A DNA stretch of 64,000 nt from a virus (IMGVR_UViG_3300021399_000002:96001-160000); one strand, 5' to 3'. Numbered from the stretch's first letter, positions 1,794 to 61,437 are shown. Program-made: numbers and translations. The notes: generated by a model from the letters alone, not told the origin.

Positions 1794-2030
1794 ATGGTAC
1801 TAAGTCCTAATAAATGGATAAAGACAAATAAGAAAGCGCAACCATGTCCAAAATGTCAATCCTCCAATCTTTGGTTGGCTCGTTCTAATCGTAAAGTAAT
1901 GCGATGGAGTGTTTGGTGCCCAGACTGCCACTTGCGCGGAGCAAGAAGACGAACAATGGAATCAGCCGTCCACATTTGGAAGAGAACGTACAAAAACTTT
2001 AATTAGAGGAAAGGTGATCAATTTGTTTAA
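1794..2030 (+). CDS. Lar-like (restriction alleviation) zinc-finger protein; one TAG read through
   Basis: PCPKC...VWCPDC...AVHIWKR is the Lar-family pattern; reading through TAG at 2004 ends at TAA 2030, overlapping the next start. Confidence 0.55.
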
Positions 2031-2619
2031 AATAAAGAGTCTTGGTGATATTATACCAGCAAAAATTGATTGGCATGACGCTAAATATTTATGGCGAAAC
2101 ATAATGATAAAACAATGTGGACAAGACTATTATGAAGATCATTTTCTTCACAGTGCTGTCGAAATGGCGCCATTGCTGACATTGTTGGAAACTATTGAAA
2201 CTTACCCAGAACCATATAGTTTGTATATTCCAACAAACTATCAGCAAGAATGGAGTCATATTCATCCGTCATTTACATCTATCGGGATGATGTTAAAATG
2301 CTGTGAACAATGTAATTGTCGACTTGCAACATATGAGGAATATTGGTTCTATATGCTGGATCAAATAATTAACGAAAAACGAAACATAAAAGAATTATTA
2401 GTGGAAAAAAGTAGTCCTGACGAGCCTTCTTTGGCATTTATTAGTAGTGATAAACAGCATCTTGCGTTGGCAGGCAGCAAAGCTGGCGGATTTGCGGGCC
2501 GTGAAATGAGATGGAGAAACTCGAGAATTCATGTTTTTGAATCACCATACATAACTTTGGATTTTGTTAGAGCACTTATAGTTAGTAATACAATTCCACT
2601 TATGGTAAAACTAACATAA
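2023..2619 (+). CDS. Hypothetical protein
   Basis: TTG start after an AGGAAAGGTGA RBS, within ORF 1909..2619. Confidence 0.6.
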   Translation: MFKIKSLGDIIPAKIDWHDAKYLWRNIMIKQCGQDYYEDHFLHSAVEMAPLLTLLETIETYPEPYSLYIPTNYQQEWSHIHPSFTSIGMMLKCCEQCNCRLATYEEYWFYMLDQIINEKRNIKELLVEKSSPDEPSLAFISSDKQHLALAGSKAGGFAGREMRWRNSRIHVFESPYITLDFVRALIVSNTIPLMVKLT

Positions 2620-2636
2620 TAGGAGAAATGTAAAGT

Positions 2637-2825
2637 ATGACATACGGTGAAATTTATCAAAAAGCAAAAGGCGTTTTAGGAGAAGAAAATATATTGGATT
2701 ATCGCCCAGCTGTATTTGAAATGATGCCAGAATCTATGCTTGACGGAGTTCGTATGTGCATACCAAATACAATTATGATTTGGTTAAAGAATGGTGATTG
2801 TATTTGGTATAGAGCTGAAAACTAA
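2637..2825 (+). CDS. Hypothetical protein
   Basis: AGGAG RBS, ORF. Confidence 0.65.
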   Translation: MTYGEIYQKAKGVLGEENILDYRPAVFEMMPESMLDGVRMCIPNTIMIWLKNGDCIWYRAEN

Positions 2826-2839
2826 TAGGAGAACTACGA

Positions 2840-3112
2840 ATGATTGATAGAGAGAAAATTATAGAAAATATGAATATCGCAAAAGCGGTATTGTGTAATC
2901 AAAATATAATTACTCCAGAAATGTGTATTAAGATTGGGCAAACTATTTCGGATGTTCTTTCTTTACTTAAAGAGCAGGAACCACAGCAAGTAGTAATTAC
3001 AACAAACTCCTATGGAACAAAGTTTTACCATTGTCCGAAATGTAATCATGATCTTTATGCCTATCCACGACAAAATTATTGTAGTAATTGCGGACAGGCG
3101 GTGAAGTATTGA
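2840..3112 (+). CDS. Zinc-ribbon protein
   Basis: HCPKC...YCSNCGQAV. Confidence 0.7.
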   Translation: MIDREKIIENMNIAKAVLCNQNIITPEMCIKIGQTISDVLSLLKEQEPQQVVITTNSYGTKFYHCPKCNHDLYAYPRQNYCSNCGQAVKY

Positions 3113-3369
3113 TGACCGGAAAAGAAGCAATATCCAGAATAAAGACTGGAAATTTTAATAATGATTTTGGGTTTGATATGCAAATTTTAATTGATACAGT
3201 CGGAATTCTCGGAGAAATGTTTAGAAGCGGGCAAATTCATGAGGTTATCTATTGCAAGGAATGTCGGTGATATGATGAAAAAATTTCTTTTTGCAATAAT
3301 TGTAATCTGCCACGAGAGCAAACATTTTTCTGCGCTGACGGGAAACACAGGGAGGATGGAGGAAAATGA
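3112..3369 (+). pseudogene. Cys-rich small phage protein interrupted by one in-frame TGA (3268-3270)
   Basis: EVIYCKECR*YDEKISFCNNC...FFCADGK continues the common phage CKDC...C...FC motif and ends in an ATGA overlap with the next gene. Confidence 0.55.
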
Positions 3370-3614
3370 GAATGACGAAATATGGATGGGAATTGTTTGC
3401 TGAAAAATGTTTTTGTGCAAGAGATGACTGGGAAGAAGGTCTTGATTCTATCCCTGGAACATGGGATGAAAAAAATGGATGTTGGTATGAATTTAGACAT
3501 AGATGTTCATATTGCGAACGTGAAAATGAAAGTAATAGCTATACACGATATTGTCCTCATTGCGGAAAAGAAATGACATTTATTGAAAACATAACAAAAA
3601 CGGCGGTGAAATAA
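3366..3614 (+). CDS. Zinc-ribbon protein
   Basis: RCSYC...YCPHCGKEM. Confidence 0.7.
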   Translation: MRMTKYGWELFAEKCFCARDDWEEGLDSIPGTWDEKNGCWYEFRHRCSYCERENESNSYTRYCPHCGKEMTFIENITKTAVK

Positions 3615-3616
3615 AA

Positions 3617-3904: not shown

Positions 3905-3905
3905 T

Positions 3906-4548: not shown

Positions 4549-4549
4549 A

Positions 4550-4795: not shown

Positions 4796-4797
4796 GA

Positions 4798-5295: not shown

Positions 5296-7161
5296 ATGGC
5301 ATATAACGCAGACTCAATACAAGTACGAGATTTTCGTACCGCGGCAAGATCGACTCCTGGCATGTATATTGGTGCAGATGGACAAGATGCTATGTTTAAT
5401 TGCTTTCTAGAAATATTAAACAATGCCTGTGATGAAGCAATTATGGGTCGCGGTAATGAAATTACTGTAGAAGTTAATGATAATGATATTAAAGTCACTG
5501 ATAAAGGTGCGGGGGTGCCACATGGAAAAAATAAAGATACAGAAGAAGTACTCATCGAAATATATACTTCTGCTCATTCTTCTGGTAAATTTGATTCAAC
5601 TAATTATAAAAGAGTTCGTGGTATGCACGGTATTGGGTCAAGTACAGTGTGCGTTTGCTCGGAAATCTTTGAAGTCTGGACACGCAGAGACGGAGCAGAA
5701 TGGAACATTGTATTCAAAGACGGTATACCACAATCTTCTACTGCGAACAGAATACGAAGTACAAAAGAAACAGGTACAACAGTGTATTTTAAGCCTGATA
5801 AGACCATATTCCATTTAAATGAAGATACTCCTTCATTTGATAAAGAGCGTATTAGAAAAGAACTACAATTAACTAGCTATTTTATTCCAAATGTTAGTTT
5901 TGTATATAAAGTAGATGAAAAAGAAGAAAAATTTCTATCTAAAAATGGATTGAAAGATTTTGCAGCGAATAATATTTCTAAGCCACTTCATAAACAATAT
6001 ATTTATGCTAATAAACATTTTGATGGCGATATTGATATTGAAGTTTTCGCGCAATGGACAGGTGGAAAAGAGAAAAGTTATGTATTTTCTAATGGTGCTT
6101 TAAATGCGAATGGTGGTACTCCAATTGCAGGCATGAAAGCAGCTTTTACTCGTACAATTAATGATTTAGCTAAAGAATCATTTGATGGTGATATGATTCG
6201 TAAGGGATTAGTCACTATAATTAATATTAAACACCCACATCCTGTATATCAGAATCAGGTAAAAGATAAGATTCAAAATACTGAATTGCGTGGTTATACA
6301 CAAACAGTGTTTACTGAAGCAATTAAAGATTGGGCGATAAATAATAGAGATGATCTTGATAGAATACTAACAGTATTATCTAAAGAAGCAAAAGCCGATG
6401 AGGCCGCAGAACGCGCAAGAAATGCTATCCTTTCAATGGAGAAGAAAGAAACTGAACAGCGCAAGCGTAAAGTGACTTCTTCTGATAAGTTTAAAGATTG
6501 CGAGAAGCATGGTGCTGATTCCATGCTTATTATTTGTGAGGGTAATTCTGCTTTAGGTGGACTAATGCCAGCGCGAGATGTAAAGACAGAAGCACTTTAT
6601 GCTGTGCGTGGTAAAGTAAAGAATCTAATGAAACATCCTCTAGAAGAATGTCTAGAAAATCAAGAAGTATCTGATATTATTATGGCACTTGGATGTGGTA
6701 TTCAAGAGCGTTATAATGAGAAGAAACTTAATTATGGAAAAGTTGCAATTGCTACAGATGCTGATGTAGATGGATATTCTATTATGTGTCTAATTGCAAC
6801 TCTCTTCTATGTATTAATGCCAAAATTTATTGAAGAAGGACGGCTTGGCTGGCTGCGCGCGCCTCTTTATAGATTAAGTAAAGGCAAACAGCATGTATAT
6901 GCTTATGATGAAGATGAACTTTCTGAACTAAAGAAAACTCATAGTGGATGGGAACAGAGTCGCTATAAGGGATTAGGTGAAATGGTAGCAGAAGATATGG
7001 AAGAATCTATGCTACATCCGGTAAATCGGCGTCTAGATATTCTTACCATTAATGATGCTGAACTGGCGGCGGAATCACTAAAGATGCTAATGGGCACTGA
7101 GGTTGAAGGACGCAGAGACTTTTTGTTTGAGAATGTGGATTTTAATATTATAAATAATTGA
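5296..7161 (+). CDS. gyrB: Type II topoisomerase B subunit (GyrB/ParE-like)
   Basis: PGMYIG, EILNNACDE, DKGAGVP, GMHGIGSS GHKL motifs; EGNSA, RGK, DADVDG TOPRIM motifs; RYKGLGEM. Confidence 0.95.
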   Translation: MAYNADSIQVRDFRTAARSTPGMYIGADGQDAMFNCFLEILNNACDEAIMGRGNEITVEVNDNDIKVTDKGAGVPHGKNKDTEEVLIEIYTSAHSSGKFDSTNYKRVRGMHGIGSSTVCVCSEIFEVWTRRDGAEWNIVFKDGIPQSSTANRIRSTKETGTTVYFKPDKTIFHLNEDTPSFDKERIRKELQLTSYFIPNVSFVYKVDEKEEKFLSKNGLKDFAANNISKPLHKQYIYANKHFDGDIDIEVFAQWTGGKEKSYVFSNGALNANGGTPIAGMKAAFTRTINDLAKESFDGDMIRKGLVTIINIKHPHPVYQNQVKDKIQNTELRGYTQTVFTEAIKDWAINNRDDLDRILTVLSKEAKADEAAERARNAILSMEKKETEQRKRKVTSSDKFKDCEKHGADSMLIICEGNSALGGLMPARDVKTEALYAVRGKVKNLMKHPLEECLENQEVSDIIMALGCGIQERYNEKKLNYGKVAIATDADVDGYSIMCLIATLFYVLMPKFIEEGRLGWLRAPLYRLSKGKQHVYAYDEDELSELKKTHSGWEQSRYKGLGEMVAEDMEESMLHPVNRRLDILTINDAELAAESLKMLMGTEVEGRRDFLFENVDFNIINN

Positions 7162-7216: not shown

Positions 7217-8026
7217 ATGATTAATAAGAAAGAAGATAATCAATGGTATGGTAAAGGATTTGAAATTGCTATATATATAATGTTTAATAAATTACCTCAG
7301 ACCAACCCTTTTCCTGAACATGTAGAAGATAAAGAATGGCAGCATTTACTTAATGATGCTCAATTATTTATTAATTATTATAATAAGAATGAAAAAATTA
7401 TTTCTATTGAATGGATTGGAAATCATACGTGTACGATGGATGGAGATTTAATTATTAATAAAGAAAAAGTAGAAATTAAAAGGGTATCTAAAGGATTGGG
7501 CACATGGGGCAATTTCACTATTAATCATATTTATAAATATCTTTCTAATGATTTTAAGCCACATACTGATTTTATGAAAAAAGTTGGATTATATGATAAA
7601 TTCACAACTATTTCAAAAAATCATAATTGGATGAAAGATCCATATACAACCAATCCTCTTTCTGTTGAAGAAGCTAAACAGTACGGAGATAATCTTATTA
7701 TATTAGATGAAGAGTGGCGTAAATTATTTGTTCAAGCAATATATCAAGATCTATTAAATCATCCTAAAAATATTCAAAAACTTATTAATGATTGTATTAC
7801 AAAAGAAATTAGTCCAAAAAAGAAAATGCCTAAAAAATTAATTGTTTATAATTATACTACTAATACCATTACTAATTTTGCTGACATAGATTTGATTAAG
7901 AATGAATATGATAATTTTATTAAAGCAAATGAATTTGGTATTATACTTGATAGCATAAGAATTAATTTTAGTTGGAAAAATCATTGTGGACATAATTTGG
8001 CTATGTATGTCTTTCTCAGGAGATGA
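7217..8026 (+). CDS. Putative type II restriction endonuclease (PD-(D/E)xK)
   Basis: GKGFE...DGDL...VEIK motif; directly upstream of a DNA methyltransferase. Confidence 0.5.
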   Translation: MINKKEDNQWYGKGFEIAIYIMFNKLPQTNPFPEHVEDKEWQHLLNDAQLFINYYNKNEKIISIEWIGNHTCTMDGDLIINKEKVEIKRVSKGLGTWGNFTINHIYKYLSNDFKPHTDFMKKVGLYDKFTTISKNHNWMKDPYTTNPLSVEEAKQYGDNLIILDEEWRKLFVQAIYQDLLNHPKNIQKLINDCITKEISPKKKMPKKLIVYNYTTNTITNFADIDLIKNEYDNFIKANEFGIILDSIRINFSWKNHCGHNLAMYVFLRR

Positions 8027-8030
8027 TTAA

Positions 8031-8876
8031 ATGGCAAATTTAGATAAATTTTATACTAAACCTGAAATAGCAATTCAATGCTATAATTTCTTAAAACAAT
8101 TTTATCCTTCATTAGATAATGAAATGTTTCTGGAACCATCTGCGGGTTCTGGAAACTTTTTGCCTCTATTAAAACATTATGAAGCCTATGATATTGCTCC
8201 TGAGGGAGAGAATATTACCAAAGCAGATTTTTTATCTCTAACATTAAATAAAAATGATTATATAACAATAGGAAATCCGCCATTTGGAAAACGTTCAAAA
8301 TTAGCTATAGATTTTTTTAATCATGCAGCAAAATTTAGTAAAATTATTGCTTTTATTGTCCCAGTATCATTTATGAAATGGGGCGTTCATAAAGAATTAG
8401 ATTCAAGATTTAAATTACAAGCATATATGTATATACCAGAAAATAGTTTTACCGATAAGGATAAAGACTTTTCAGTACGTTGCGTATTTCAAATTTGGAC
8501 TAGAGAAAATATTTCAGAAGATTTGAGAATTTTAAAAGCTCCGCCAATTAAACACGAAGATTTTAATATTTGGCAATATAATGCTACTCCAGAAGCAATG
8601 AAGTATATAAATGAAAATTGGAAATATGCTATCTATAGACAAGGATATAAAGATTATCATCGACTTTTTACTAGAGAAGAATATGATATTGTGAAGGAAC
8701 AAATGGAAAAGAATATACAATTCTTTTTTATTGAACCATTATGCTAGCGAGCAGAACAATTTATTTGTAAAGCTGATTTTGAAGAATTAGCAGAAAGAAA
8801 TACGTCAACGCCCGGATTTGGAAAAGCAGATTTTATATCATACTATTTACAATGGATACGAGATTTTAATAATTGA
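8031..8876 (+). CDS. Amino (N6-A/N4-C) DNA methyltransferase; one internal TAG (8745)
   Basis: DKFYT, FLEPSAGSGNF (motif I), IGNPPFG (motif IV); frame stays open 42 codons past the TAG to TGA 8876. Confidence 0.85.
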
Positions 8877-18390: not shown

Positions 18391-18600
18391 ATGAAATGGG
18401 ATGAATTTAATAAAATGATATCTATTGATGCATAGGAAATGAAACCACGCTCACAAGTAAACATTGAATGTCCGAGATGCGGGGCAAAACTATTTCGTAG
18501 AAATGATATAATTTTAACTTCGAACCCTCCACAATATCAATATGAATGTGATAAGTGTAATTGGGTAGGATATTCTCATAACGCGGGTGATATGCTATGA
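18391..18600 (+). CDS. Zinc-ribbon protein; one TAG
   Basis: AAGGAG RBS; ECPRCG...YECDKC; ATGA overlap with recJ. Confidence 0.65.
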
Positions 18601-25491: not shown

Positions 25492-25678
25492 AAAGAAGTA
25501 TGCAGAATTAAGTGCAGAATTAAAAAAAGAATTAAGTAGAATGCAGCGTACTGATAGGGTATTTACTATTAGAAATGAAATTAAAGCATTACAAGCACTA
25601 TGTACACATGATATAGGGAATTATGATTTTTCTAATGCTGATGAATGCCCCTATTGTGGAAAAAAGTTTAAGGGGTGA
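25472..25678 (+). CDS. Small coiled-coil/Zn-binding protein
   Basis: CTH...ECPYCGK; AGGAGG RBS. Confidence 0.65.
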   Translation: METTEVKKKYAELSAELKKELSRMQRTDRVFTIRNEIKALQALCTHDIGNYDFSNADECPYCGKKFKG

Positions 25679-25683
25679 TTCAT

Positions 25684-27975: not shown

Positions 27976-27984
27976 GGTGATTAT

Positions 27985-28104
27985 ATGACTAAATTAGAAG
28001 ATATTATTGAAACTGATATTGGTACAATAGAAATATGGTCGCAAGATGAATTTGAATATTATCCTCCATATATAAAATCATAGGAGGATGATAATAATGA
28101 GTAA
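27985..28104 (+). CDS. Small acidic hypothetical protein; one TAG
   Basis: GAGGTG RBS; read-through end overlaps the nrdG start. Confidence 0.4.
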
Positions 28105-28591
28105 AATCGCAGGAATCTATTGGGATGATACCGCGGCGGCACCAGGTATCTCCCTTTCAGTGTATTTTTCGGGATGTCATTTCCATTGCCCCGGATGTCA
28201 TAATCCCGAAGCACAAGATTTTAATTATGGTAAAGAATTTACCTGGGATTATATTAATGAAATTTTACATAAAATAAAAAAGAATGGCGTAATGCGAACT
28301 TTAAGTATTCTTGGCGGTGAGCCATTAAATAATGAAAATATTGATGCTGTAAAGCAATTAATCGGGTGGTGTAAACATGATTTTCCAGATTTAAAAATTT
28401 ATGTCTGGACTGGTTATACTATAGAAGAATTAGAAAAGCGAGATGATGATGATGTTAGAACGGTCCTCCGAAATATAACCTGTTTAATAGACGGGCGATA
28501 TGAGGAGGATAAAAGAGACACGACGTTGCCGCTACGTGGTTCTTCAAACCAGCGAATCATTATGATGGAGGATTATTTAAATGGCCATTAA
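28097..28591 (+). CDS. nrdG: Anaerobic RNR activase (radical SAM)
   Basis: GCHFHCPGCHN, LGGEP, WTGY, IDGRY, RGSSNQR. Confidence 0.95.
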   Translation: MSKIAGIYWDDTAAAPGISLSVYFSGCHFHCPGCHNPEAQDFNYGKEFTWDYINEILHKIKKNGVMRTLSILGGEPLNNENIDAVKQLIGWCKHDFPDLKIYVWTGYTIEELEKRDDDDVRTVLRNITCLIDGRYEEDKRDTTLPLRGSSNQRIIMMEDYLNGH

Positions 28592-33068: not shown

Positions 33069-33110
33069 AAAAAGAAAGCCCGGGACATTTAAGTCCCGGG
33101 CTATTTTTTT
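33069..33110. terminator. Bidirectional terminator between the convergent early and virion arms
   Basis: A-run, AGCCCGGGAC-atttaa-GTCCCGGGCT, T-run. Confidence 0.85.
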
Positions 33111-46700: not shown

Positions 46701-49700
46701 CAGTAGAAATATTCTATAAATAAGAATCACCAATCGCGGCAATTTCCTACTAGAATAATTCATTAACATCATATCCAACTTGTGCTAATTTCTAATTTAA
46801 GCCAGCTAAATCTACTCTATTATGGCCCCATTCATCAGTATTAATAAAGTCTCTAATATTAATACCCCAGTTTGCGAATGCAGTCTGGAAAGCGGCGATG
46901 GACTCTTCAGATAAATTCTAATAATTAGAAACTAAATCTTGAATAGCATTATATCTCTAATTCTATAATTCATATTTTAATTTATTATATGCTGCTTCAA
47001 GATTGGCTACATCTTCAGCAGTACCATTTTCACGTGCCGCAGCTAAATCAGCACTTAAATTCTTTAATACTGCTGCGGTTGCTTCCCATTCTTGAGTATA
47101 TTCGTTAAAAACATACCCGCGTTCACGCATTACCTACTCAGCATTAATAGATTCATTTTCAGTTGCAATAGCAAAATCCTAAGCTGCCTGCTAACTTACT
47201 TTCATAGCGATAATAGCATTAGTATTAGTAGCAATATTTCTCTTACTCTTAACTGCTTGCTATGATTCTATAATAGCACGCTTTACAGCTTCATTCTATT
47301 CTTTAGAAGCATCTAATGCTAAAATCCAATTGTCTCTCTATACTTCAGAAAGAATAGTAAGAGTATCAGTTTCAGCACTTACTCCTAATGCCGCCTTCAT
47401 TTCAGATGATAAATCATGAATATTAACGGTATCTCCAACATTCGCTCCAGCCAGATTAGAAATTTGTGTTTTAATACGAGTATTAACATCACGAGAAGCA
47501 TTATCACTAATAGTAGCATCAACCCATGCACTATAAGCCGCTTTATATTCTTCTGAAGCATCATTCCAGCCTCTTCTTGCAGCATATCCAGCAAAATCTT
47601 TAATACGAATTTGTCCATAGTCATTGATTTCAATTAATTCATCATTTATTAACTTTTGAAGTGCCGCATCATAATTATACCGATCCTTGCCATTTTTGTC
47701 TTTTCCTTCATAGACGCCAAATATTTCGCCAGCATCAGTATAAGTCTATATTAGTTCGTCAATACTAAGTGTATTCTTACTTAAAGTTTCTAAACCATTA
47801 CGTTTTCCTTTATATTTATTATCTAGTCCTAAAGCAGCAATATTATTTAATTGTGAAATAGTTGCTTCTCCAGTTTCAGCCATCTAATTATATAAATTTT
47901 TATAGGCTTCAGCCAATGAGGTGGCAACAGAAACTACAACATTATTTTCAATTGTAAATCCTGCTTTAGTTAATGCTTCAATATGTTCCGTTGCAACAAA
48001 AGAACCAACTTCTAATGAATCTACTAATTCTGCAGCAGCTTGAATAGGAGCAATCTAAGCTTCATATGCGGTTTGTAGCTCTTCAGTAGTTGCTTCTGGC
48101 TTAACACGCTTTAATTCTTCAACTGCCACTGAACCGCCTTTTGATAGAATTTCTAATGTAGATTTTGTGTGTTCTTTTGCCCATTCATTGATAGTTGATT
48201 CTGAGCCGTAAACTCCATAATCTTTAGCTTTGGTTATAAAATATTTTTGTAAATTACTTTTTAAAGTATTAGATTCTCTTACAGTGGCTGTTCCAGATAA
48301 GAACTTACTAAAATCTAAATTATCTTTAAACAAAGCATCTATCTAATTCTATATATAAGCTTGCTTCTCAGCTTCAGAAGCGAATGTTAAGTTTTCGGCT
48401 GATCTTTCAATCATACGACGCATATCATTAGTATCAAGAATCCAAGCATCTAATAATGCATCATATATAAATGTCGCGCTTTCACCATTAAATAACTACC
48501 CAAAAGCTTTCTAGAAGCCCTATATTTCTACTTGACTTGAAGTGCCACTTACAGCTAATGAACCGGCTTTAGAAATATTATCAATATAAGAATCTGCGAT
48601 CGTAGAGATATATTCATCAAAGATTTTAGAGTATTCATCGTCCATGGCTGTTTTAAACCCTTCAAAATCTTTAATAAACTTATTTCCTAATGCATCCGTA
48701 CCAATATATTTATCATACTTATTTCCAAATTCTGCTCTAAAATCGTTTAAAGCCTATTCACTTATGTTTTCATAAGAATCTAAAACTCCAATTAATGCTT
48801 CATTTTTATAATTCTTATTTAATTCAGTTGCAAGAGCTTCTCGTTTCTATTTTAATTCACGAATAGTTTGTTCCGTCGCACCAGAACCTGGAGCTTCTGC
48901 TTCGGCAATTTGTGCATCAATATCTGCTAAAGTCTATTCTGTCGCAATTAATTGTTTAGACCACTCATCATATTCATAGCCCTTAGCTTCTGCATATTGT
49001 CTAATCTACTCATCATTTATTATGTTTTTATCCAATAGTCCATTATATCCAGATTTTGTAGCTAGTGACTTCCTATAATCGTCTAAATTAATTGAAGACT
49101 AAATAATATTTTCTAAATTTTCACCGCGAGTTCCACGAGAAGAAATAATACTATCATTAATGGTTCTATAAACAGCCTATAAAGCTTCTTTTCCTTCGCC
49201 TTCATAGCTATCAATATAAGTCTTAAGTAATAATAATAAATTATCACGCAAATATTCATTACTAATAGTTATTGTACCATCAACGGCCCCAATTGCTGCT
49301 TGCATTTCAGGTGTCAATGAGCTAACATTAATCTCGTCTCCAACTTTTGCAGAAGATAAATTCTATAGCTAAGAAGCTATCTATTTACCTTTATTATCTT
49401 TCGCACGCTAAGCGATTTGACTATCAATAGTTTCAGTCGCAAAATCTGTAAAGCCTGCTAATGTTACACCAAATGCTTCAGCGAGCGCAGTTATAATCTA
49501 TTCAGCACTTGCATTTGCGTCTGCTTCAAGAGAATTAGTTTCTGGATTATATTTATAAATACCTTTAAGAGTTTCATCTTTAAATTCATTTGTTTCTTCA
49601 TTATATAATTCAGATAATGCAATTTTATAAGTATTAGCATAAGTTTCTAATTCATCTAAAGTAATACTTCCATCACTAGCCATATCAGCTACAGATTTAG

Positions 49701-52700
49701 CTTTTAATACATCTTTATTATTCGCTTCAGCCTAAGCTTTAATAAATTTATTATAATCTTCTGCTGAAATTATTCCATTCTTAAATAATGATTCCATATT
49801 AGTCTATAATTGTTTGACTAATAATTTAACCATCATAGGATATTTTTTAACATTTTTATATCCTAACTAACTAGCTAATGCTTCTGAAGCATCACTTAAT
49901 GTAGTATTATTATTATCTAATAATTCTTCAATTAAAGTAGTATACTACTAAGCATTGGTCTGTCTACTCTATTTTTTAATAGTATCACTAATCTTAATTC
50001 CTAATACATCTTCTAATGGCTTGAAATTAGCTTCCTTTAAAGCTTCCCAAATTTCAACTGCTTTTTCCGCGGCTTCGCCGCCAAGAATATTCATATATGT
50101 AATAAAACTTTCATATATGGTATCTGATGCAGTTCCACCTGCAATAGCATCAAAGTCCATTGAAGCAATATATTGTAATGGAGAATTTTGTAAATAAGTC
50201 TATAAGAACTCTAATTCTTTTTGATCATATTGATTTAGTGCATCAATAACCCAAGTATTCCATTCTAAATTTTTATTTTCTGCTTTTTCTTTTTTAAACT
50301 AATCCTATAACTATTGTAATGTCTAACTTAAAACATTTTTTTCAGGTTCAGATAATCCTTCTAATTTTCCTAATTGTTCAGTAATATTTTCTCCAGTAGA
50401 ATCAGCAGTTAATTGTTTAATTACTTCCTATACAGAACTATCCTAAATAATTTCTGCTTGTCTACTGATTGCTTCTAATCTATCATTATTAGCTTCAGTA
50501 ATCTATCTATATGATTCATCAAGAGCTTCTGAAGTAAGAACCCATTTATTTAAATCAGCATTCCACTCAATTAAATTATCGGCTGTTCTATCTTTCTTTT
50601 CAGATTTAGCAATAATTTCCTATGCGGCTTTTAAAGCATCAGAATAATCCATTCCTTTTCCTATATTTCCTAATGCTTTTTCAGCCTCTTCTGCAATTTT
50701 AGAAGTTTCAGACATCATTGAAGAGATAGTTAATCCGATATTTGTATAAACTCTTTCTCTTATTTCTGTTAATTTAGAAACAATATCAGTTAAACCTAAT
50801 GCTTCAAAATTCTTAATAGCCGTATCAATTGATTCAACATCAGTTAAATCTAATTCACGAAGTATAGGAGATATATCATGTTGCTAATCATCACTTAATT
50901 GTCCAATCTATTGATATAAAGTAGTTAAGCCATTTAAATAATTATCGGCAGCAATTGTATAACCTTTATCCATTAATTGCTTGTATTGTGGTAATGAAGA
51001 TTGCAAAATAGTAGCAACTTCTGCAGTTATGTTATCTTCGGTATTACTCATATCAAATAGTCGCCATAATTCTGTGTCCAATCCACCAGTATTTAAACTA
51101 CCAACATAAGTTTTAATTGCATTATATAAATTAGTACGAACTAGCTATAAATTAGACTAATAATCTTTTTGTATTGAAGTAATAATATTAGCATTTATAC
51201 CATGCTCTGTATCAAAATTATGACTAGTTAAAAATTCATTTAATTTTTCAATACTACTAATCTATGAATAATTTAAACCAGTAATTAATTCATCCGCTAA
51301 CCACTAATTTTGATCAATATAAGTAACAAGTTCATTATAGAGAGTGGTTCCTAATGTTGTATTTCCCGTTTCAGTCCAATCTACATTTTTTTTATACCTA
51401 GATATCATTGAACTAATAAACTATCTATATTGATTTAAATCAATTCCAGAAGTAGATTTAGAATTAATTAAAAGCTAATTTTCTGTTAATGATAAAGCTG
51501 AAGCAGAAGTAACAGAATCTGTAATAACTTCAATATCATGTTCTGTTTTTAACAATCCATTATTAATAAATTCACGAGTGTGCTAAATTGCTTGTACTAA
51601 ATCGCTCGTACTTAAATTAGCTAAAGTTTTATCTAAATTATCTGCATTAATATTAGTGATTCCAGTAAGCTATTCATAATTTAAATCTTTATTATTCTCA
51701 ACTGCTTTTTTTAATAAATTAGAATAATTGGTAAGTGCAATATCTGTGTTAGTTGCATTATTTAAAATCCAGTCATTTAAAACTGCATTGATTTCTTCCT
51801 AATGCTCTTCATATAGCTATTTAGTTTTTTCCTCAACATCCCAGTCATCTATATTAATTAAATCACCGATTTGTTCTCCTTCATATCCTAAAAATTGCAC
51901 TGCTCTATTATATGCCATTATTAATGATTCATAAACAGTTCGTCCTTGCTCAATACCACTATAACTTTCACTTGGAATAATTTGTTCTCTATTCTTATAT
52001 CCTTCACTATCTTTAACATATAAATCAAAATTAGCATATATTCTATCAAAAATTTCATCAGGAGATAAATTAGAAATAACATCTTCAGTTAACTGAATAT
52101 TGTCAGCAGCCTATAACTCTTTCCAAGCATCTTTTTCAATTAGAATACGCTCTTTTTCTTTATTTAACGCTTCAACAGTAGATGAAGCAGCTTCTGCACG
52201 CGCGTCAGCTAGAGCCAATTCTAATGATTCTAAGGTTATAATCTAATCACCGTTAATTTCCATAGCAGATATCAATGCTGGATATGAATCAGCCAACTAA
52301 TTCATATATTCATGATATTCAGTTAATGCTTCAGCAGATTCATACTATTTAGAAGATAACTCATTTAATTTATCATAAGCCTATTGTAAATCATCTACCT
52401 TACCTCGATCTAATGTAGCTTCTTGTTGAGCCTTAGTTTCTGCTTTCTCGGCTAATTCTAAACGACGGCTTAGACTTACATTAAACATATTAATACCAGA
52501 AATTAAAGAGGGTAATGCACTTGCTACAGCTCCGACTCCTATAGCTATAGGATTGCCGCCACTCATTAGGCCTCCCTAAATACCGCCTGAAATAGCATTA
52601 GCAATTGTACCTCCGACTCCAGCCCATAGTCCTGCTGATTGGTCTTGAGCAACGCTAGTACTGGCTCCATAATCAGAAGTTGCTTTTACATTTGCTAATG

Positions 52701-55700
52701 CTCCTGCAGCAGAGAACGCAGTAGAAACGAAGGTTAGTGCTGTACGCGTTTTATTAGAACCAAAAAGTGCTTGCAGCTTTGTTCCACCCTAGGCCATAAT
52801 CTAATTCATCTCTGCACTAGCAGCTTGCGCCCAAGTTCTACCAAAAATTTGTCCCTAACGCTATGCTTCAGAATTTAAAGAAGATAAACTAGTAGATACA
52901 TCAGTCTTCATCTAATCTAAGCTATTTTGTAATAATACAATAGCTAACTATGCAATATTCTTAATAGTAGAAATAATCTATACTCCTAATGCCATGGCCC
53001 ATATTGGTATATTACCTAAAGCTTTAGGTAAATTATTCGCACCATCAATAACATTAGTAATAGTGTCTAATATTCCTTTATATAAATCCTAAATTCCAGA
53101 GCTAGTATAGAACTCTTGGACTGTTACTTTCATACGCTCTATCTTAGCATCTATAGAATCCAAAGTTTTTAATGTCTATAATTCGCCAACATCTTCAGAA
53201 TTATTAGCTAATTCTAATGCTCTTCTATACTCTTCAACATTACCAACCAAAGCTAAGAAACGAGACTATTGTCTATTACCAGCCATAATAGTTGCAATAT
53301 AACGTTGAGCATTTTTATCAATAGAATCCCATTTATCGCCTAATTCTAAAATGACATCATCAAAATCCCTAAATTGCCCATTAACATCATGAATACTAAT
53401 ACCAATAGTCTATAAAGCTTTATCAACTCTGTTCAGACTCATTTCTTCCCCTTCAGAGTCAACCATTTTAGAAGGATCCGATGTCATTTCACCATAACGA
53501 CTAATAACAGATTTTAAAGCAGTACCAATATTTGTTGCAGATTCACGAGTAACTGACACCATAGTAGCAATCATTGCAGAAGTTGCTTCAAAACTTGCAC
53601 CAACAGCTTCAGCAGACGAAGCAGTTTTACTAATAGCAGTAGCTAATTCTTCAGTATCGGATGCCGTATGCGCAGCTAAATTACTAAATACATCGGTTAC
53701 ATGAGCGGCTTCGCTCATTTCTAATTTAAAACCACGCACAGCAGTAGTCATATAGTCTGCTGCAGTCGCATAATCAATTCCAGCAATACGTGCCATCTTT
53801 AAAGTTTCAGTTGTAAGATTCATTACATCGCCTTTATTTAAGCCTTGCTGATAATAAATCTATGAAACTTCATAAACGCCCTTAATTGCTACACCATATT
53901 GACGAGCAATTTCACTGTAAGTACTAATTTGTCCCCATAAATCATTTTGAGACATATTAGTAACAACAGCAATTTGAGTCATTACTTTATCAAGTTCTTG
54001 AACATGAGTTTTCATGTCCTAAATTGCTTTTTTAGTTAAATTTAAAACTTGATAAAAACCCATCCAACGAGCAACAGCGGATGATACATTGGTTAATGAT
54101 TTAGAGGCTTTTTCATATTTAGCAGTAGTAGATACATAATTTTCTAAAGCCCTACGTGCCTAATCAATCTTATCTTTATCCTATTGCATGCCGTTAGCTA
54201 AACCACCATTAAGTAAAGCTAAAGTTGCTTGTAATAAATCCTAAATCTATTGTGATAAAGCCTATGCTGCATCTTTTTTACTAGTTAAAGCCGCGGTATC
54301 AGCCGCGGCAGTAGCAGTCACAACACCCTGCGCTGCGCCATAATTGCTTGTAGTTGCCTATAATTGCTAGATCGCACTATCTAAATCCTTTATTTCTGTA
54401 TTACTAATCTAACTCTAAATCTAAGCAATAATTTGATTAATAGCGCTTTCAACACTAATACCATTTTTAATAGTACTCCAATCAATATTAAATGAACGAT
54501 TAAAAACTGACTAAATTACAGAAGTTATACTACTTTTAAAATCATTTATATTAGAAATTCTATCTACAGTAGCGCCAGAAACATTTAAAGCATCATTAAT
54601 TACTGTTTCTATTTTAGACTATAATTCAGTTTTAATCGCACTAACATCAACAGTCGAAGAATATGTTTGTAATTCTTTAATTAACTAATCAATATATCCC
54701 TATATTCCTTTACCTGTTTTAGTATTGACAAAATCATCTTGAGAAGAAAAATTGATTAAATCTTTATACTGCTCTTTAATTTTATCAATTAATGGTAAAC
54801 GATTCTGCCAATTTGTTCTACTACCATCAGGATTTTTCTACATCTTTTTAATATCAGTTAAATCCTAAATAGCTTTAGAAACATCTGCTTTTCTAGCATT
54901 GGCAAAATCTATTAAAACCTAAGTTGATTTATCAATACTTTCACGCTATGTATCAAATAATTTATTTGTACTCGCGCCCTACTTAATCTATAAATTTAAA
55001 TTTAATTGTTTTAATGCGTCATCACCCAAATATCCTTTATAAACATCCGCTAGCTAAGTACGTAAATTATCCGCGCCAGCCTTAGTTAATGTTCTATTAG
55101 CTATTTGAGCATATTCACTAGAACTCACAATTGTATTCATAATAGAATCTTTATTAATCTATGGATTATTAATAAAATTCTATAAATTTTTTAAATTCTA
55201 TTGTAAATCTGCAATTTCTTTATTTGCTTTTTCAATTTCAGTAGTTAAATTATCAGAAAATTCTGTAAAAGTAGTCTTAGATAAATCAATATTTAATTCT
55301 TTCGCCGCCTACCTTACTTTTCCAAAATCAGCATTATTTACATCATCAAATACTTTGCCTATTTTTCCAGATTCAATCCTATCAATCTCTCGCTCAAGTC
55401 CTTTCAAATCTTTAGTTAACTGAGAAAACTACCCTTGTATATTATTAGGTAATTTTAAATCATTTAAATTTAAAGTAGAAAAGGAACTTACAATCATTCC
55501 AATATGATCAAATACTTTATCATAATCCTATAGAAATTTTTTCGCTCCTGCACTAGTAGAGAATGAAGTAGCCATTTCTGAACGCAATTTGTTCACTTGG
55601 CGTAAAGCAGCATCTAATTCTTTAGTAATATTTTTCATAGAAGCAGTATTAGGCGAAACTGCATCCTAAAGAATCTACCTCAACTATTGAATCTAATTCT

Positions 55701-55755
55701 AAGCTCCCTATAAACCTAATGATACCTATATCTCTAAAGTATTGTTCGCAGCCAT
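40717..55755 (-). CDS. Giant tape measure protein (~5012 aa) with cell-wall-binding repeats; many TAG
   Basis: Ten track fragments share one frame; TMP domain (ELDKVMTQIAVVT...ELATAISKTAS...IGTALKSVISR) at ~53200-54050; GELGPE motif; WWYENADGSY...WYYFDKNGYM repeats at ~41290-41460. Confidence 0.85.
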
Positions 55756-55780: not shown

Positions 55781-55818
55781 AAAAAATAAAGAGCCACCTT
55801 CCGAAGAAAGTGGCTCTT
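55781..55818 (-). terminator. Terminator upstream of the TMP gene
   Basis: AAGAGCCAC...GTGGCTCTT stem with a T-run on the minus strand. Confidence 0.65.
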
Positions 55819-56704
55819 AAAATTCCTCTTCAGGTTTTCCTAAACGAGTAATTTCCATAATCAAATTCTTTTTATCTCCAACAGTTTCTGGCAGCCCTAT
55901 TATATTAAAAGTAGAAACAGTTGGATCTGCCCTTTCTCCCAGTCGTAAATTAATATTACTTACAACCCTAACTTTAGGCATATATAATACATTTGTATAA
56001 TTAATGCCTTCATTCTCATCTTTAGAATAAAATTTAGCTTCTAAAGTAAATAATCCATTAAAGCGTTCTTTCTATACAGTATATATCAACGCTTCATCAC
56101 TATATTTATAGTAATAATCAACGGCATATTTTCTATTATTTTCTGCTGGTGTTTCGAAATTTTTATCCTTAGCTAAAGCTAATCTATAATGTGGATTATC
56201 AAAAGGGTCAAGAACTTCTATATATTTTCCATATAATTTTTGCTATATAGCATTTCTAGTATATTCAAAAATAAAAATTTTTTTATCTGGATAAAATATA
56301 GGCTTATTCGTTAATTCAACAACAGGAAACAATAAACCATTATGCTCATATTCATCTACAATTGTTAAATTTTCTTCTTTTATAGGAATATATAATGGTT
56401 CATCTTCCTTCTAACTGGTGACATTCGCACTTAAAAGTATACTCATTCCAACTGAAGACATAACTCCTTCAGTCATTTGAAATGTTACTTCAGTGCGCTC
56501 ATCCCATATTACACGTGGCATATTAGCCCAGCCGCCACGAGCAAAGACTGGCCTATTCTATTCAGACAACAATGAGAGGTTAACATTATTAAAATATAAT
56601 ACTGGCTCTTGTGATTCAATATATCTATCTCCAAACTACATAGGGGTTTTCGCGCGAAGGATTACTTCATATAACTCTTTATATCCAAAATATTCATCAT
56701 TCAT
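55817..56704 (-). CDS. Paralog of the major tail protein (minor tail tube protein); several TAG
   Basis: FGYKELYEV...ARGGWANMPRVIWD...EGVMS aligns with MTP YGIKEVANV...AQGGWGNPRLIQWD...DALMS. Confidence 0.7.
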
Positions 56705-56718
56705 AGGTATCACCGCCT

Positions 56719-56764: not shown

Positions 56765-57727
56765 TTACTGAGCTACAGAGCCGATATCGTCTTCAGTAGT
56801 GCCACCAGAGGTAGTACCGATGTTATAACGAACTAGCTTCATCATTTCATTCTGACCATCATCGTTGGTAGAACGTAATACATTTAGAGTCATTTCAAAG
56901 GTAGAAGGATCGCCTTCAGCCTGTAGAGTAATAGTAACATTGCTCTGTACCTTTGCCTTATTAATAACGAACTGGAATGGCTCATCCTTACCAGTCTTTT
57001 CAGAACGCATGAAGGTATCACCAACAACCTTGTAAGTTCCAGGGAAAGTATCAGGAGAAATGGTTACTTCAATAGCAGTCTCATTTCCTTCATTATTCTG
57101 AAGAACTTCTTCCCAGAAAATACGAATGTGATCGCCAGCAGCAGTTAGCTGTTCAGCAGGTTGTTCAGTAGAATCATAACCGATCATAGCAGGGTTGACG
57201 AAATTAATTGCTTTATTACCCGGTAAACTAATCTCCGCTGCGCCTTTCGTAGGTCTAATTTGAGTACGAGTACCCTGAGTTAAGTTGATTAAACGAATTG
57301 GATGTTCGTAAGAAGCTTTTGGAGTTAATTGAACACCAGTTAAATGATCTTTAGGTAGTGGTACAACACCATTAGTGCCGCAAACTACTTCTTCAGTATG
57401 ACGTACGATAACAGGCTTACCAGATTCTGGCTTTTTAATAGCGCCACCTAACATGAAACGTAAAGATTCTAGAGACATTAAAGCATCTTCTAGAGTAATA
57501 TTGATTTCCTTACCATAATCCCACTGAATTAGACGAGGATTGCCCCAGCCGCCCTGCGCAGCTGTATTTTCTGCAGTGGTCTCAATGGTGGAAACTTTTA
57601 GGGTATCTAAGAATAGAACAATATCACCAGCATATACGCCAGCGGCGAGATCGTCTTCTAGAGCTTCAAAATAAACATTAGCAACTTCTTTAATGCCATA
57701 TTTATCAAAAATATTTACATTAGCCAT
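56765..57727 (-). CDS. Major tail (tube) protein
   Basis: AAGGAGG RBS; beta-rich; ITLQAEGDPSTFEMTL; position before the TMP; own terminator; no TAG. Confidence 0.75.
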   Translation of the reverse strand: MANVNIFDKYGIKEVANVYFEALEDDLAAGVYAGDIVLFLDTLKVSTIETTAENTAAQGGWGNPRLIQWDYGKEINITLEDALMSLESLRFMLGGAIKKPESGKPVIVRHTEEVVCGTNGVVPLPKDHLTGVQLTPKASYEHPIRLINLTQGTRTQIRPTKGAAEISLPGNKAINFVNPAMIGYDSTEQPAEQLTAAGDHIRIFWEEVLQNNEGNETAIEVTISPDTFPGTYKVVGDTFMRSEKTGKDEPFQFVINKAKVQSNVTITLQAEGDPSTFEMTLNVLRSTNDDGQNEMMKLVRYNIGTTSGGTTEDDIGSVAQ

Positions 57728-57746
57728 AAAAGTTACCTCCTTTAAA

Positions 57747-58526
57747 TTAAGTTTTTTCTGTACTTGCAATGGAACGCATCCAATGCTTTAACTAAGATTT
57801 TTTTAGCTTAGCTCCTGCGAGAGCTGCTTTCTAATTTATATTAAACTAATCACGCCAGCCCATCCGCTTTAGCTAATCATGAAAAGCATAATATGTAATA
57901 TCCCAAATATTTATCATATTTAGGCCACAATCATTGATAGCAATACTACCAATTAAATCAGATAACTTTAAATCAGAACCTTCTTTAGCATTCTATTTTG
58001 CTTTTGCTCTACGAACTTTTTCACGATTTTCACGCATTTTTTGTTTTAATTTTTTTGTCGCAGGTAAATCATCAGCATATATAATAATTTCCTCGCCTTC
58101 AACTTCTAAAAAATACATACGGCGCAATACACGCTACAAATCATAAAACTTTTCTTCATTTAATATGCGTTTATCAGTCAAAGGCCCTATAAAAATTGAA
58201 GGAGGGTCTAAACTTAAAGTTATTTCTTCATGAGTAAAAAATTTAAAAGCTCCTTTTAAATTTTCATTCATATTAATATCTAAATTTGCCATTAAAAGAA
58301 TAAACTAAAAATCTGTTAATGAATCAATCATTTTCTTCATTTCAGCATCAATATTCTTTTGCTCTATAGGTTTAGTAGAAGTAATAACAGATAAATATAT
58401 CTAAAATTTATCATATCCTAAATCTACTATTTCACCCAAAGTAGCAGGATAAACTGCACAAATATCGTCAATAAAAACGGGACTTCCTTTTTGAAATTTT
58501 AATATTTCTGTATCAGTTAAATTCAT
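57747..58526 (-). CDS. Tail-region hypothetical protein; several TAG
   Basis: MNLTDTEILKFQKGSP... open to TAA 57747 under read-through. Confidence 0.6.
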
Positions 58527-59016
58527 TAATCTAATACTGCATAGTATAGCCGCCAATTTGTGAAGTAAAAACTGTTCTATCAGCCCGTACAAATTGTAAA
58601 GTTCCAATTCCTGCCATCTATGCTCCATTGAATATGTTATCAATGCGTTCCATAATTAAGTATGGCCGCAAAGAATGCTCATTTAAAACCCATTCATCAT
58701 AAGGACAAGCTACTTCGACACCAATTGTATCTATCTTATAATCTGGGTTTATTACATTGGTAATAAAACTATTAAATAATACTACTACATATGAAGTTTT
58801 TTCTGTACTATCATCCCATATTTTAGGAGTAATCATAATCTATTTATTTAATAGTAATATCCCATCTACTTCTTCGTATTTTTCATCAAAAGGATCCCGT
58901 ACCTAATATTTTAATAGACGACAAAGTTCTCTATCTTTCATAAGCTTATTTGCCATATTAAATGCATTATTACCCATTACAGCAAATCTGCGCTAAGTAG
59001 GTCGTTCTATTGCCAT
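58513..59016 (-). CDS. Putative tail terminator/completion protein; several TAG
   Basis: GAGGTGAG RBS; LCRLLKY...LRPYLIMERID; position upstream of the tail genes. Confidence 0.55.
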
Positions 59017-59026
59017 TTATCTCACC

Positions 59027-60247
59027 TCACCATAAAGGAATAATCTCTACAGTTTTGGTATATTCCTTACCCTAATAAGTAGCAATTAAAATAACCTTTC
59101 CTAATTTATTTTTATCATTTGCATGAAGTACATATATTTTATTATTATTAGAATCTACGTCCTCTTTAATAGTTGCATAATCATAAGTTTTTTGATTCTT
59201 TTGAATACTTATTTCTGCATTTATAATATTTTCATCAGCTTTTAAAACATAAGTTCCATAGCGATCTAATTTAATATTATCTGGCCCATCAATATAAATC
59301 AAAGATGGTTCATCTTTAGGATAAATAGTAACTTCTACTTCATGTTCTACAGCAGGCCGATTTTTTAATTGCATTTTAATTATACACTATCCTGGCGCGA
59401 TAGCATTAAAATTATCATCAATAAAATCACAATCATCCGGTTTGATTAAATTAATTTCCCACTAATTCAATGTGTCTTCTTCGAATTTAGGAACAATCTA
59501 TTCGCCCACCTTATATAATGTTGGTAATGCTGGAAATTTATATCTATCAGTATCAGCAACATCTATATCCCTATCATCATACTAATAATTGACTTTACTT
59601 TCTGTTAATGAAATATAAATAATTCCTTCTACACTAGTCCAGTCACACTCAATAACTATCCATCCTTCATTTTCAATAATAAAAGTAACTCCTCTCATTA
59701 ATTCATTATAATCCTCACTATTTTTTCTAAAAATAGGTCTTGGCATAATAATTTCTGCAAACTTATTTGGCTATGGAGAAATCAAAGAATGCCACATTCT
59801 AAAGTTACTTTTAATTTTACTATCTACAGAACTTACAGCATAAGCCCAAGACTTGCGTAAATATCCATCTGTATCAATCCATTTTAATTCATAATTACAT
59901 TTAACCATCTAAAATGTCTAATACTATTCATGTACTTTATGTATTTTCTATAATAAAAGCCATTTTTCAATAGCTCCATTATCCTATCTCCATGTTACTA
60001 TATCACCAACTACTATAGGTATATCATTGGCAACATATAAATACATAATTTTCTGTTCTTCTTTATCTTTACTTGTCTAAATAATCCCACTAAAATAATA
60101 TCCACGTTCGACAGATAAATCAGTAACAGTAAATGGAGATTGAGCCAGCCATTTTTCAAAAGCTACAATCCCACTATTATTAATTCTTTCAGCTATTGTC
60201 TCTCCAAAGTGATTCACACGGGAAAAATAAACATCAAGATAATTCAT
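59027..60247 (-). CDS. Putative head-closure/neck protein with Ig-like C-terminus; several TAG
   Basis: MNYLDVYFSR...; IYIDGPDNIKL Ig-like end; frame continuous under read-through. Confidence 0.55.
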
Positions 60248-60569
60248 CTGGTATTGTTAATCCACCAACTAGATTGATACACTCAAAAATATTTTTTCTA
60301 AAATACTCATATGATAAATATCGTAAAAGTGCAACTTTTCCTAGTAGTGGCCACCAATTGATAGAATTTGCCCCAAGACCTAGTAATTCAATTAAAATTG
60401 AATCTAAAAATTTTTCCCATTCTCCATCTTTTTCTCTTTCGCAAAGTAATCCGTAAAAGCGGCCTTTAAGTTTACTTTTATAACTATCAAAAGTTATTTG
60501 AGTAAACTTGTCGCTTCCCTGCCAGTTTTCTAAATATTTCTGAAGGGGTTTTTCCACGCGATCTGTCAT
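60234..60569 (-). CDS. Hypothetical neck-region protein
   Basis: ORF; start uncertain (83-nt overlap with the upstream gene). Confidence 0.55.
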   Translation of the reverse strand: MTDRVEKPLQKYLENWQGSDKFTQITFDSYKSKLKGRFYGLLCEREKDGEWEKFLDSILIELLGLGANSINWWPLLGKVALLRYLSYEYFRKNIFECINLVGGLTIPDELS

Positions 60570-60990
60570 ATATATCCTACTATTCTTCGACCTCTCGCAT
60601 CACATTTGCTTCAAGGTCATTCAATTTATCTAAATGATTTGCGGCAGAGAAATCTTTGGAGGTATAAAGCTATCCAATATGTTCCCAACTAGCGACGCAT
60701 CTTTTTACCCACTCATGTTTCATATATACAGCAAGTAACTAAATTTCATCGTTAGTTAAATCTTCTACAAACTAATATATTTTAAACTAAGGAGCATCAT
60801 CCGTACTATCGACATTAGATACTTCTTCAAAATCTAAACTCACACGAGGATACTTAAAGCGAGCAATGGCCATTTTGAGAAGTTCTTGCCAGTCTCGTTC
60901 TACGATGGCTAACTCTTCTTCTAATGTCCATTCATCAGCAGTTATTCGCGCGAGAAAAGCATCATAAACCTTTAAGAAGGGCGTTGCCAT
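60487..60990 (-). CDS. Putative head-tail adaptor; several TAG including a tandem TAG-TAG
   Basis: MATPFLKVYDAFLARITAD...KDFSAANHLDKL; follows the capsid genes. Confidence 0.6.
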
Positions 60991-60996
60991 TTTTCA

Positions 60997-61437
60997 TCAC
61001 TTCTCTTCTGCGTCGTGCTTCACGGCAATAGCCTAAATTACATCAACATCGCAGTATCTTTTAATTAGGGCTACAATGCCCGCATTGGTAATTTTATGTT
61101 CTACAGCAAGAGTAACAGCACTTTCTTTTTCCGCATCAGTTGCATGTGGAATAAATTTAGCAAATGCGGTTACATCACCTTTAACTAGCATTTTTTCAAT
61201 TTCAGAAGCTTCAAATACATTTTCAACAACTTCTACCTGCTGCTCTTCTTCAACACCAGTAATTTTAATATAATGTCCATTTACTAGGGACATAAAACCT
61301 GGATCAAAGGTCAACTCTTCATATTCTTCCTGTGATACAGGAATTTCACGTCCCGGCATTAATTCACGATTAAAACGAATGGCCGGTAAATATAACGAAA
61401 TTAAACTCGTACTAACATTCTTAATTTTAATACTCAT
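60997..61437 (-). CDS. Hypothetical head-associated protein; one TAG
   Basis: GGAGG RBS; read-through to TGA 60997. Confidence 0.65.

Follow-up and report, generated by a model that had tools for sequence, protein, structure and literature searches.

We consider it very probable that the DNA analysed here, a stretch of 64,000 nucleotides (the window; bases 96001-160000 of the 182,655-bp contig IMGVR_UViG_3300021399_000002), is part of the complete 183-kb genome of a long-tailed, rumen-type phage, probably with a host in the Bacillota, that decodes UAG as glutamine (genetic code 15). All positions are those of the window unless 'genome' is stated. An original prediction, made from the window alone, had proposed that the phage uses TAG as a sense codon, most likely for glutamine, and noted that such recoding occurs in gut phages of standard-code hosts, as has indeed been published (preprint 10.1101/2021.08.26.457843). 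The contig has a G+C content of 35% and its ends are identical over 127 bp; it therefore represents a complete, circularly assembled genome. The nearest matches of its large terminase (TerL) are from phages of Bacillota. These relatives, together with strong ribosome-binding sites and promoters of the type TTGACA-N17-TATAAT (often with an extended TG), probably place the host in that group. Two Rfam 'cow-rumen' RNA families are present in the genome. A megablast search against deposited phages gave no DNA-level relatives, and the 69 related loci used below are metagenome contigs from IMG/VR.

The window is divided into two halves. The plus-strand half (1-33068) carries genes for replication and nucleotide metabolism, with Pfam matches to GyrB, GyrA, an AAA_24 ATPase, a DnaB-like helicase, RecJ, Pol III alpha, NrdD, NrdG, a formate/nitrite transporter (FNT), dUTPase and RuvC. 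The minus-strand half (33109-64000) carries tail and virion proteins, including the tape-measure protein and several PHROG structural families. GC skew changes sign at the junction of the two blocks. Genes for the portal, the large terminase and possibly a sigma factor are located immediately outside the window.

Coding density was calculated as greedy open reading frame (ORF) coverage, with one stop codon at a time switched to sense. For the late block (33109-61473) coverage rises from 0.37 with the standard bacterial code (code 11) to 0.98 with TAG as sense, and for the whole genome from 0.66 to 0.91, so that the gain on which the original prediction would stand or fall is clearly present. 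TGA as sense was rejected as it brings no such gain (0.41 for the late block and 0.70 for the genome). TAA as sense was also rejected: it raises the late block to 0.78, but the added coverage comes almost entirely from the wrong strand. Read in code 11, the minus-strand block consists of fragments of at most about 200 amino acids, which become nine long abutting genes when TAG is read as sense. The largest of these, the tape-measure protein gene (40717-55755, minus strand; PhageMin_Tail, E 1.5e-31), has 5012 codons, of which 167 are TAG.

The distribution of stop codons supports the same conclusion. Genes of at least 100 amino acids in the window contain 285 in-frame TAGs, far above chance. 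Of these, 257 fall within the 9,916 codons of 12 genes on the minus strand, and the other 28 within the 9,640 codons of 30 genes on the plus strand. Over the whole genome, genes of this size contain 574 TAGs in phase 0 and not a single TAA or TGA. All 77 TAG-free genes of this size stop at TAA or TGA and none at TAG, in agreement with the earlier statement that no well-supported gene ends in TAG. The relatives behave in the same way. Where their alignment reaches the C-terminal end of a window protein (n=370), the next codon is TAA in 230 cases, TGA in 131 and TAG in only 9, while within the alignments we counted 1,718 TAGs against 42 TAAs and 22 TGAs.

The prediction also held that standard-code fragments ending at TAG continue in frame into recognisable domains, and this was borne out by Pfam matches that run across TAG codons. 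In RecJ, the RecJ_OB match (residues 473-578) spans the TAG at codon 573; the RuvC match (81-181) spans those at codons 146 and 161, with 24.6 bits against a cut-off of 22.2; the GIY-YIG match (252-339) spans codons 293, 308 and 334; and the PhageMin_Tail match in the tape-measure protein (621-823) spans codons 632 and 782. The Hint domain named in the same list is a partial case: the alignment (1782-1893) extends over four TAGs but its score, 21.9 bits, is below the Pfam cut-off of 29.7. The portal (10 TAGs), TerL (4 TAGs) and several PHROG families, including four of virion proteins, were also matched across TAGs. In addition, reading through TAG was said to place the TGA stops of RecJ and of a methyltransferase inside the -35 box of the next promoter, as for gyrB and the FNT gene. 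All four stops (gyrB, 7159-7161; methyltransferase, 8874-8876; RecJ, 20367-20369; FNT, 29142-29144) do lie within the -35 hexamer TTGAC(A/C) of a promoter that has TATAAT 17 nucleotides further on. Judged from sequence, TAG is thus an ordinary sense codon in the tail, virion, packaging, homing-endonuclease and resolvase genes. A standard-code annotation breaks up about a third of this 183-kb genome, including the tape-measure, portal and terminase genes, and annotation pipelines need code 15 to treat it correctly.

To determine which amino acid TAG encodes, window proteins were aligned, with an X at each TAG, to their relatives in the 69 loci (36 retrieved with the TAG-free tail protein gene at 56765-57769 and 33 with RecJ). 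Opposite the window TAGs the relatives mostly have glutamine (CAA 404, CAG 146) or TAG itself (394). When the 195 sites were compared with per-residue substitution profiles, glutamine ranked first in likelihood, 69 natural-log units ahead of lysine. In columns considered as conserved (at least eight informative relatives and 80% agreement), the residue is glutamine in 15 of 17. The TAG in RecJ, which had been predicted to occupy the position of a conserved glutamine, faces glutamine in all 32 relatives and in the RecJ structure 8y30 of the PDB, and the alignment extends beyond the TAG. Codon usage provides further evidence. Per 1000 codons, TAG-free genes use 18.0 CAA and 16.0 CAG; TAG-bearing genes use 17.3 CAA, 5.5 CAG and 17.7 TAG. 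Clearly, TAG has largely replaced CAG, from which it differs by a single C-to-T change. Three sister phages that use the standard code give the same answer: glutamine is their commonest residue opposite a window TAG, and in the columns where they have glutamine the window has TAG in 24-30 cases and glutamine in 26-28. The assignment to glutamine in the original prediction is therefore well founded.

No tRNA of any kind was found in the window, as expected from the earlier remark that no suppressor was seen there. The remainder of the genome had been suggested as the place to look for a tRNA-CUA, a release factor (RF2) or a synthetase. The first of these is indeed present; the others are not, since neither a release-factor domain nor a GlnRS/GluRS core (glutaminyl- or glutamyl-tRNA synthetase) was found in the genome. 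The tRNA-CUA (genome 55157-55242; 86 nucleotides, 66% G+C, anticodon CUA) is the first of an array of 24 tRNAs (genome 55,157 to 66,065) and is located some 41 kb upstream of the window. As there is no GlnRS/GluRS core in the genome, host enzymes would have to charge it. Further along the array, a tRNA-like gene (genome 64854-64925) has a 6-nucleotide anticodon loop; ARAGORN gives it no anticodon and it matches the Rfam tRNA model partially (32.8 bits). ARAGORN attaches the tag 'Pyl' to any CUA anticodon. Pyrrolysine was rejected in view of the alignments, which give glutamine; pyl genes were not searched for.

The structure of the tRNA-CUA is unusual. Compared with the bacterial glutamine identity set (G73, U1-A72, G2-C71, G3-C70, G10, U35, G36, A37 and U38; PMC9976931), it has U1-A72, G2-C71, G73, G10, U35 and A37. 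Its anticodon arm is that of the phage tRNA-Trp(CCA) except for the middle base of the anticodon. Apart from this arm, no convincing similarity over the whole molecule was found with the tRNA-Gln, tRNA-Trp or tRNA-Ser of the phage or of its sister. The variable region contains the motif CUCUGAA, which differs from the anticodon loop of the tRNA itself (CUCUAAA) only in having G instead of A36 and is identical to the anticodon loop of tRNA-Gln(CUG). The tRNA is conserved in recoded relatives, and the sequence CCUCUGAAG is invariant in the four aligned copies of the phage family. The suppressor is not an ordinary tRNA-Gln, having neither the full canonical glutamine identity set nor a short variable loop, although it may act like a glutamine suppressor.

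We then scanned IMG/VR for a CUA anticodon arm followed by a T-arm, leaving the variable region unspecified. Of the 99 distinct sequences so identified, 44 have a short loop of the normal kind; the other 55 have a long region and reduce to 44 different long variable regions. A CUG or UUG triplet is found at positions 3-5 of a 7-nucleotide loop, closed by 16 different stems, in 30 of these 44. The design is widespread in phage contigs of IMG/VR, and its stems covary. For the tRNA of this phage and of its clade the hairpin is limited to 2 bp, in competition with a 4-bp fold in which CUG is part of a stem. From these sequence patterns we tentatively suggest, as a possibility that we regard as less probable than its opposite, that the extra arm could be a miniature glutamine anticodon loop that allows host GlnRS, or GluRS together with GatCAB, to accept a stop-reading tRNA. 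We found no description of such an arm in the papers searched. This odd suppressor provides a testable handle on how such tRNAs obtain glutamine.

A number of observations weigh against the reading of UAG as glutamine by this tRNA. Many TAG sites fall in variable columns and, when weighted by site, glutamine makes up only about 20% of the aligned residues. Glutamine is deduced at the level of the gene and not of the protein, and glutamine charging is likewise deduced from protein alignments and not from the tRNA itself. The tRNA is atypical, with C3-G70 (G3-C70 in tRNA-Gln), A36, A38 and a variable region of 19 nucleotides. Because of this region it misses the Rfam tRNA model, and it scores only 33 bits with the tRNA-Sec model. 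Finally, no gene was recognised in the genome for countering the host release factor RF1.

These features lead to the question of whether TAG could specify another residue: serine, leucine or tyrosine, whose class II tRNAs also have a long variable region, or tryptophan, in view of the Trp-like anticodon arm. According to Kienbeck et al., about 30% of phage suppressor tRNAs are predicted to be of the Trp, Ile or Tyr isotype. We nevertheless regard this as highly improbable. In natural-log likelihood relative to glutamine, serine is at -80, leucine at -228, tyrosine at -235 and tryptophan at -297, and not one of the 17 conserved TAG columns is assigned to any of the four. The codon that is depleted where TAG appears is CAG and not one for serine, leucine or tyrosine. 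Nor is the tRNA of the serine (supD-like) type. It has A72, C4-G69 and U11-A24 in place of the serine identity elements C72, R4-Y69 and C11-G24, and its extra arm pairs over only 2 to 4 bp.

Assuming that UAG is read as glutamine, the arrangement of the genes suggests how decoding might be timed. A strong promoter of host type with an extended -10 (TTGACT-17-TATAAT), of the same type as those of the replication block, is located 480 nucleotides upstream of the tRNA-CUA. Between the two are a cow-rumen-4 RNA leader (genome 54710-54775, Rfam) and, directly before the tRNA, a TAG-free ORF of 114 codons. A cow-rumen-3 RNA (genome 57910-58053, Rfam) also occurs in the tRNA region. In the model that we propose, which agrees with the one already published (preprint 10.1101/2021.08.26.457843), host RNA polymerase would make the tRNA-CUA early, alongside the standard-code genes; a host enzyme would load it with glutamine; and the loaded tRNA would have to outcompete host RF1 almost completely. 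The TAG-laden late genes could then be translated only after the tRNA had built up, which would constitute a translational timer. The observed pattern fits such a scheme: TAG is absent from GyrB, GyrA, the helicase, Pol III, NrdD and NrdG, and the recoded tail and virion genes have from 1 to 167. With 167 TAGs in a single gene, read-through must be nearly complete. For example, 99% read-through per codon would yield about 19% full-length tape-measure protein, and 90% only about 2e-8. This gene therefore sets a hard lower bound on how fully the phage must silence UAG termination. One point is at odds with the timing model: a single TAG is present in each of RecJ and the methyltransferase-like gene, which belong to the early or middle block, so early and late genes are not strictly divided.

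The relatives include phages with the standard code. At four of the related loci (L023, L028, L030 and L031) the longest frame has no in-frame TAG and ORF coverage is equal under both codes; in three of these (L023, L030 and L031) there are tape-measure frames of 2,500-3,000 amino acids. One standard-code sister genome (G005; 181,042 bp) was fetched whole. It has 19 tRNAs, none with a CUA anticodon, including tRNA-Gln(CUG) and tRNA-Gln(UUG). Ten of its 144 genes (7%) stop at TAG, and it carries a tape-measure ORF of 5158 amino acids in the standard code. The giant tape-measure gene is therefore real, and the code change arose within the family. Recoded and standard-code sisters with the same gene order, and with a tRNA-CUA only in the recoded members, provide a natural comparison for studying the origin of the change.

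These sisters also bear on the idea that the host itself reads TAG as sense, so that the phage would simply share its code and there would be no switch during infection. The single TAGs in RecJ and the methyltransferase gene, both middle genes, could be accommodated in this way. To our knowledge, no bacterial lineage in which TAG encodes glutamine has been described. TAG is completely absent from 77 genes, the entire replication block among them, which use CAG in its place; a tRNA-CUA is encoded by the phage itself; and standard-code sisters in the family terminate 7% of their genes at TAG. In addition, the published survey finds such phages in standard-code hosts (preprint 10.1101/2021.08.26.457843). 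A shared host code is thus hardly credible.

Least probable of all is that TAG remains a stop, the minus-strand block being decayed, non-functional or an assembly artefact, or TAG being only leaky with low-efficiency read-through: the short code 11 fragments and the failure to find a release-factor or recognised anti-RF1 gene are what this would lead one to expect, but decay cannot produce a single 15-kb frame with 167 TAGs and no TAA or TGA, the frames recur in dozens of independent contigs from other samples, in which the TAG sites differ, phase 0 excludes TAA and TGA yet holds 574 TAGs, the portal and TerL, both essential, are among the genes affected, and read-through of 90% or less would leave under 1e-7 of the tape-measure protein at full length.

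Recoding with glutamine at UAG places this phage alongside known code 15 gut phages, which include crAss-like, Lak, Garnet, Amethyst, Sapphire, Agate and Topaz clades (preprint 10.1101/2021.08.26.457843; Yutin et al., PMC7886860) and for which Peters et al. (PMC9523058) obtained proteomic proof. As in those phages, TAG occurs mainly in structural and late genes and the replication genes keep the standard code, and there is a phage tRNA-CUA, no synthetase and a set of close standard-code relatives. Borges et al. (preprint 10.1101/2021.08.26.457843) describe code changes, with standard-code relatives, within other phage clades. Charging of phage suppressor tRNAs by the host has been proposed both by these authors and in the phAss-1 paper (PMC10607447). 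Compared by description, the genome size and the scattered recoded modules resemble those of the large Jade, Sapphire and Agate clades. Three features differ: no RF2 was found here, TAG density is very high (3.3% of the codons of the 5012-amino-acid tape-measure protein), and the suppressor tRNA has a long extra arm that is not described in those papers.

Another known phage with which a comparison can be made is phAss-1 (Phassvirus group, OQ749652; PMC10607447), for which a Clostridia host is predicted. The two share a related TerL (34% identity), a siphovirus-like organisation with a giant tape-measure protein (3149 amino acids in phAss-1) and Pol III alpha, TAG in TerL and in the tape-measure gene, and a suppressor tRNA without a synthetase. 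They are only distantly related: phAss-1 is a 136-kb phage of the human gut with three suppressor tRNA genes, in contrast to 183 kb, rumen type, a single tRNA-CUA and a tape-measure protein of 5012 amino acids.

With respect to the tRNA, Escherichia coli has amber suppressors that insert glutamine, namely supE (a tRNA-Gln with anticodon CUA) and a tRNA-Trp changed from CCA to CUA and charged by GlnRS (PMC9976931). The phage tRNA shares with them the CUA anticodon with U35, G73 and the weak first pair U1-A72, and with the second an anticodon arm that is a tRNA-Trp arm except for C35U. It differs in its 19-nucleotide variable region with CUCUGAA, for which they have no equivalent, and in C3-G70 (G3-C70 in tRNA-Gln); its charging with glutamine is a prediction. 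In recoded gut phages, suppressor tRNA genes can be followed by theta (HDV-like) ribozymes (PMC10879173). Ours is likewise a phage tRNA-CUA in a code 15 genome, and the 260 nucleotides downstream of it gave no match to any Rfam family, which covers the theta ribozyme only if Rfam models it. TAG recoding, its bias to late genes, a phage tRNA-CUA, the lack of a synthetase and the existence of standard-code relatives have all been published already. What goes beyond the routine is the TAG load of the 5012-codon gene, the pairing of recoded and standard-code sisters, and the unusual suppressor tRNA.

The individual genes of the minus-strand block are as follows. The tape-measure protein is very long for proteins of this type. 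Were its entire length to serve as a ruler, an extremely long tail would result. The gene showed no large tandem repeats, and relatives at this locus have open frames of 2,500-3,150 amino acids with 0 to 112 TAGs. On one side of it are a possible distal tail protein gene (38963-40711, minus strand; 582 codons, 14 TAGs) with a weak Sipho_tail match (E 0.0056) and a tail or virion gene (33109-38934, minus strand; 1941 codons, 40 TAGs), in which the weak Hint-like stretch is C-terminal. On the other side is a pair of paralogues. The virion structural protein gene at 56765-57769 (minus strand; phrog_2729, E 2.5e-49) is TAG-free and is likely to encode the major tail protein. Its paralogue at 55817-56713 (minus strand; phrog_2729, E 1.9e-19, residues 12-283) has five TAGs, with glutamine opposite codons 157 and 214 in 15 of 15 and 16 of 20 relatives, respectively. 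Long match spans had raised the suspicion of an insertion or intron in homologues of the 56765-57769 gene; this was rejected, the neighbouring paralogue having been joined instead.

Four further genes are present on the same strand. That at 57747-58643 (298 codons, 8 TAGs; phrog_4051, E 4.9e-37, residues 48-292) has conserved TAG columns of which four are glutamine and one asparagine. The gene at 59027-60247 (406 codons, 12 TAGs), which matches phrog_5251 and others, has glutamine at codon 159 in all 27 relatives, and the phrog_3853 gene at 60487-60990 (167 codons, 6 TAGs; E 7e-24, residues 1-142) has it at codon 84 in all 31. In the gene at 60997-61473 (158 codons), which has a single TAG at codon 147, relatives align through the TAG to the end of the protein, where they have TGA or TAA.

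Recoding is not genome-wide, as both the replication genes and the virion proteins that are likely to be the most abundant are TAG-free. The latter are encoded by four genes (56765-57769, 61508-62629, 62629-63258 and the next gene), which suggests that TAG is still a costly codon. The replication and nucleotide-metabolism block (5239-29144, plus strand) is almost TAG-free, with none in GyrB, GyrA, AAA_24, the DnaB-like helicase, Pol III alpha, NrdD, NrdG or FNT. In this otherwise TAG-poor part of the genome, two GIY-YIG genes and the RuvC-like gene form TAG-rich islands. The first, a homing-endonuclease-like gene (29198-30232, plus strand; 9 TAGs; GIY-YIG, E 1.1e-9), has mostly glutamine in relatives at codons 186 and 293; the second (15857-16645, plus strand; 3 TAGs) also has a GIY-YIG match in Pfam, which likewise extends across TAG. 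The RuvC-like resolvase gene (31936-32688, plus strand) has 8 TAGs, two of which are spanned by the match.

The RecJ exonuclease gene (18597-20369, plus strand) has DHH, DHHA1 and RecJ_OB domains, its TAG at 20313-20315 and its true stop, TGA, at 20367-20369. The adenine methyltransferase-like gene (8031-8876, plus strand; motifs xPxxGxG and NPPF) has its TAG at 8745-8747 (codon 239); the single relative that could be aligned has ACG at this site and the same TGA end. A late sigma factor gene with 7 TAGs (genome 164827-166137) was considered and rejected, as it has one PHROG match only and no Pfam support.

Some minor observations can be added. The motifs of the methyltransferase-like gene read EPSAGSG and NPPF, and upstream of it is a 269-codon gene without a family match (block 7217-8876, plus strand); the two may form a restriction-modification pair. 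The FNT-like gene (187 amino acids) directly follows those for NrdD and its activase (25675-29144, plus strand). Formate is the reductant of NrdD, and the transporter may serve as an auxiliary formate supply. Lastly, an uncalled open frame at approximately 1582-1791 (plus strand), between two called genes, would encode a zinc-ribbon-like peptide (CKNC...CAKC).

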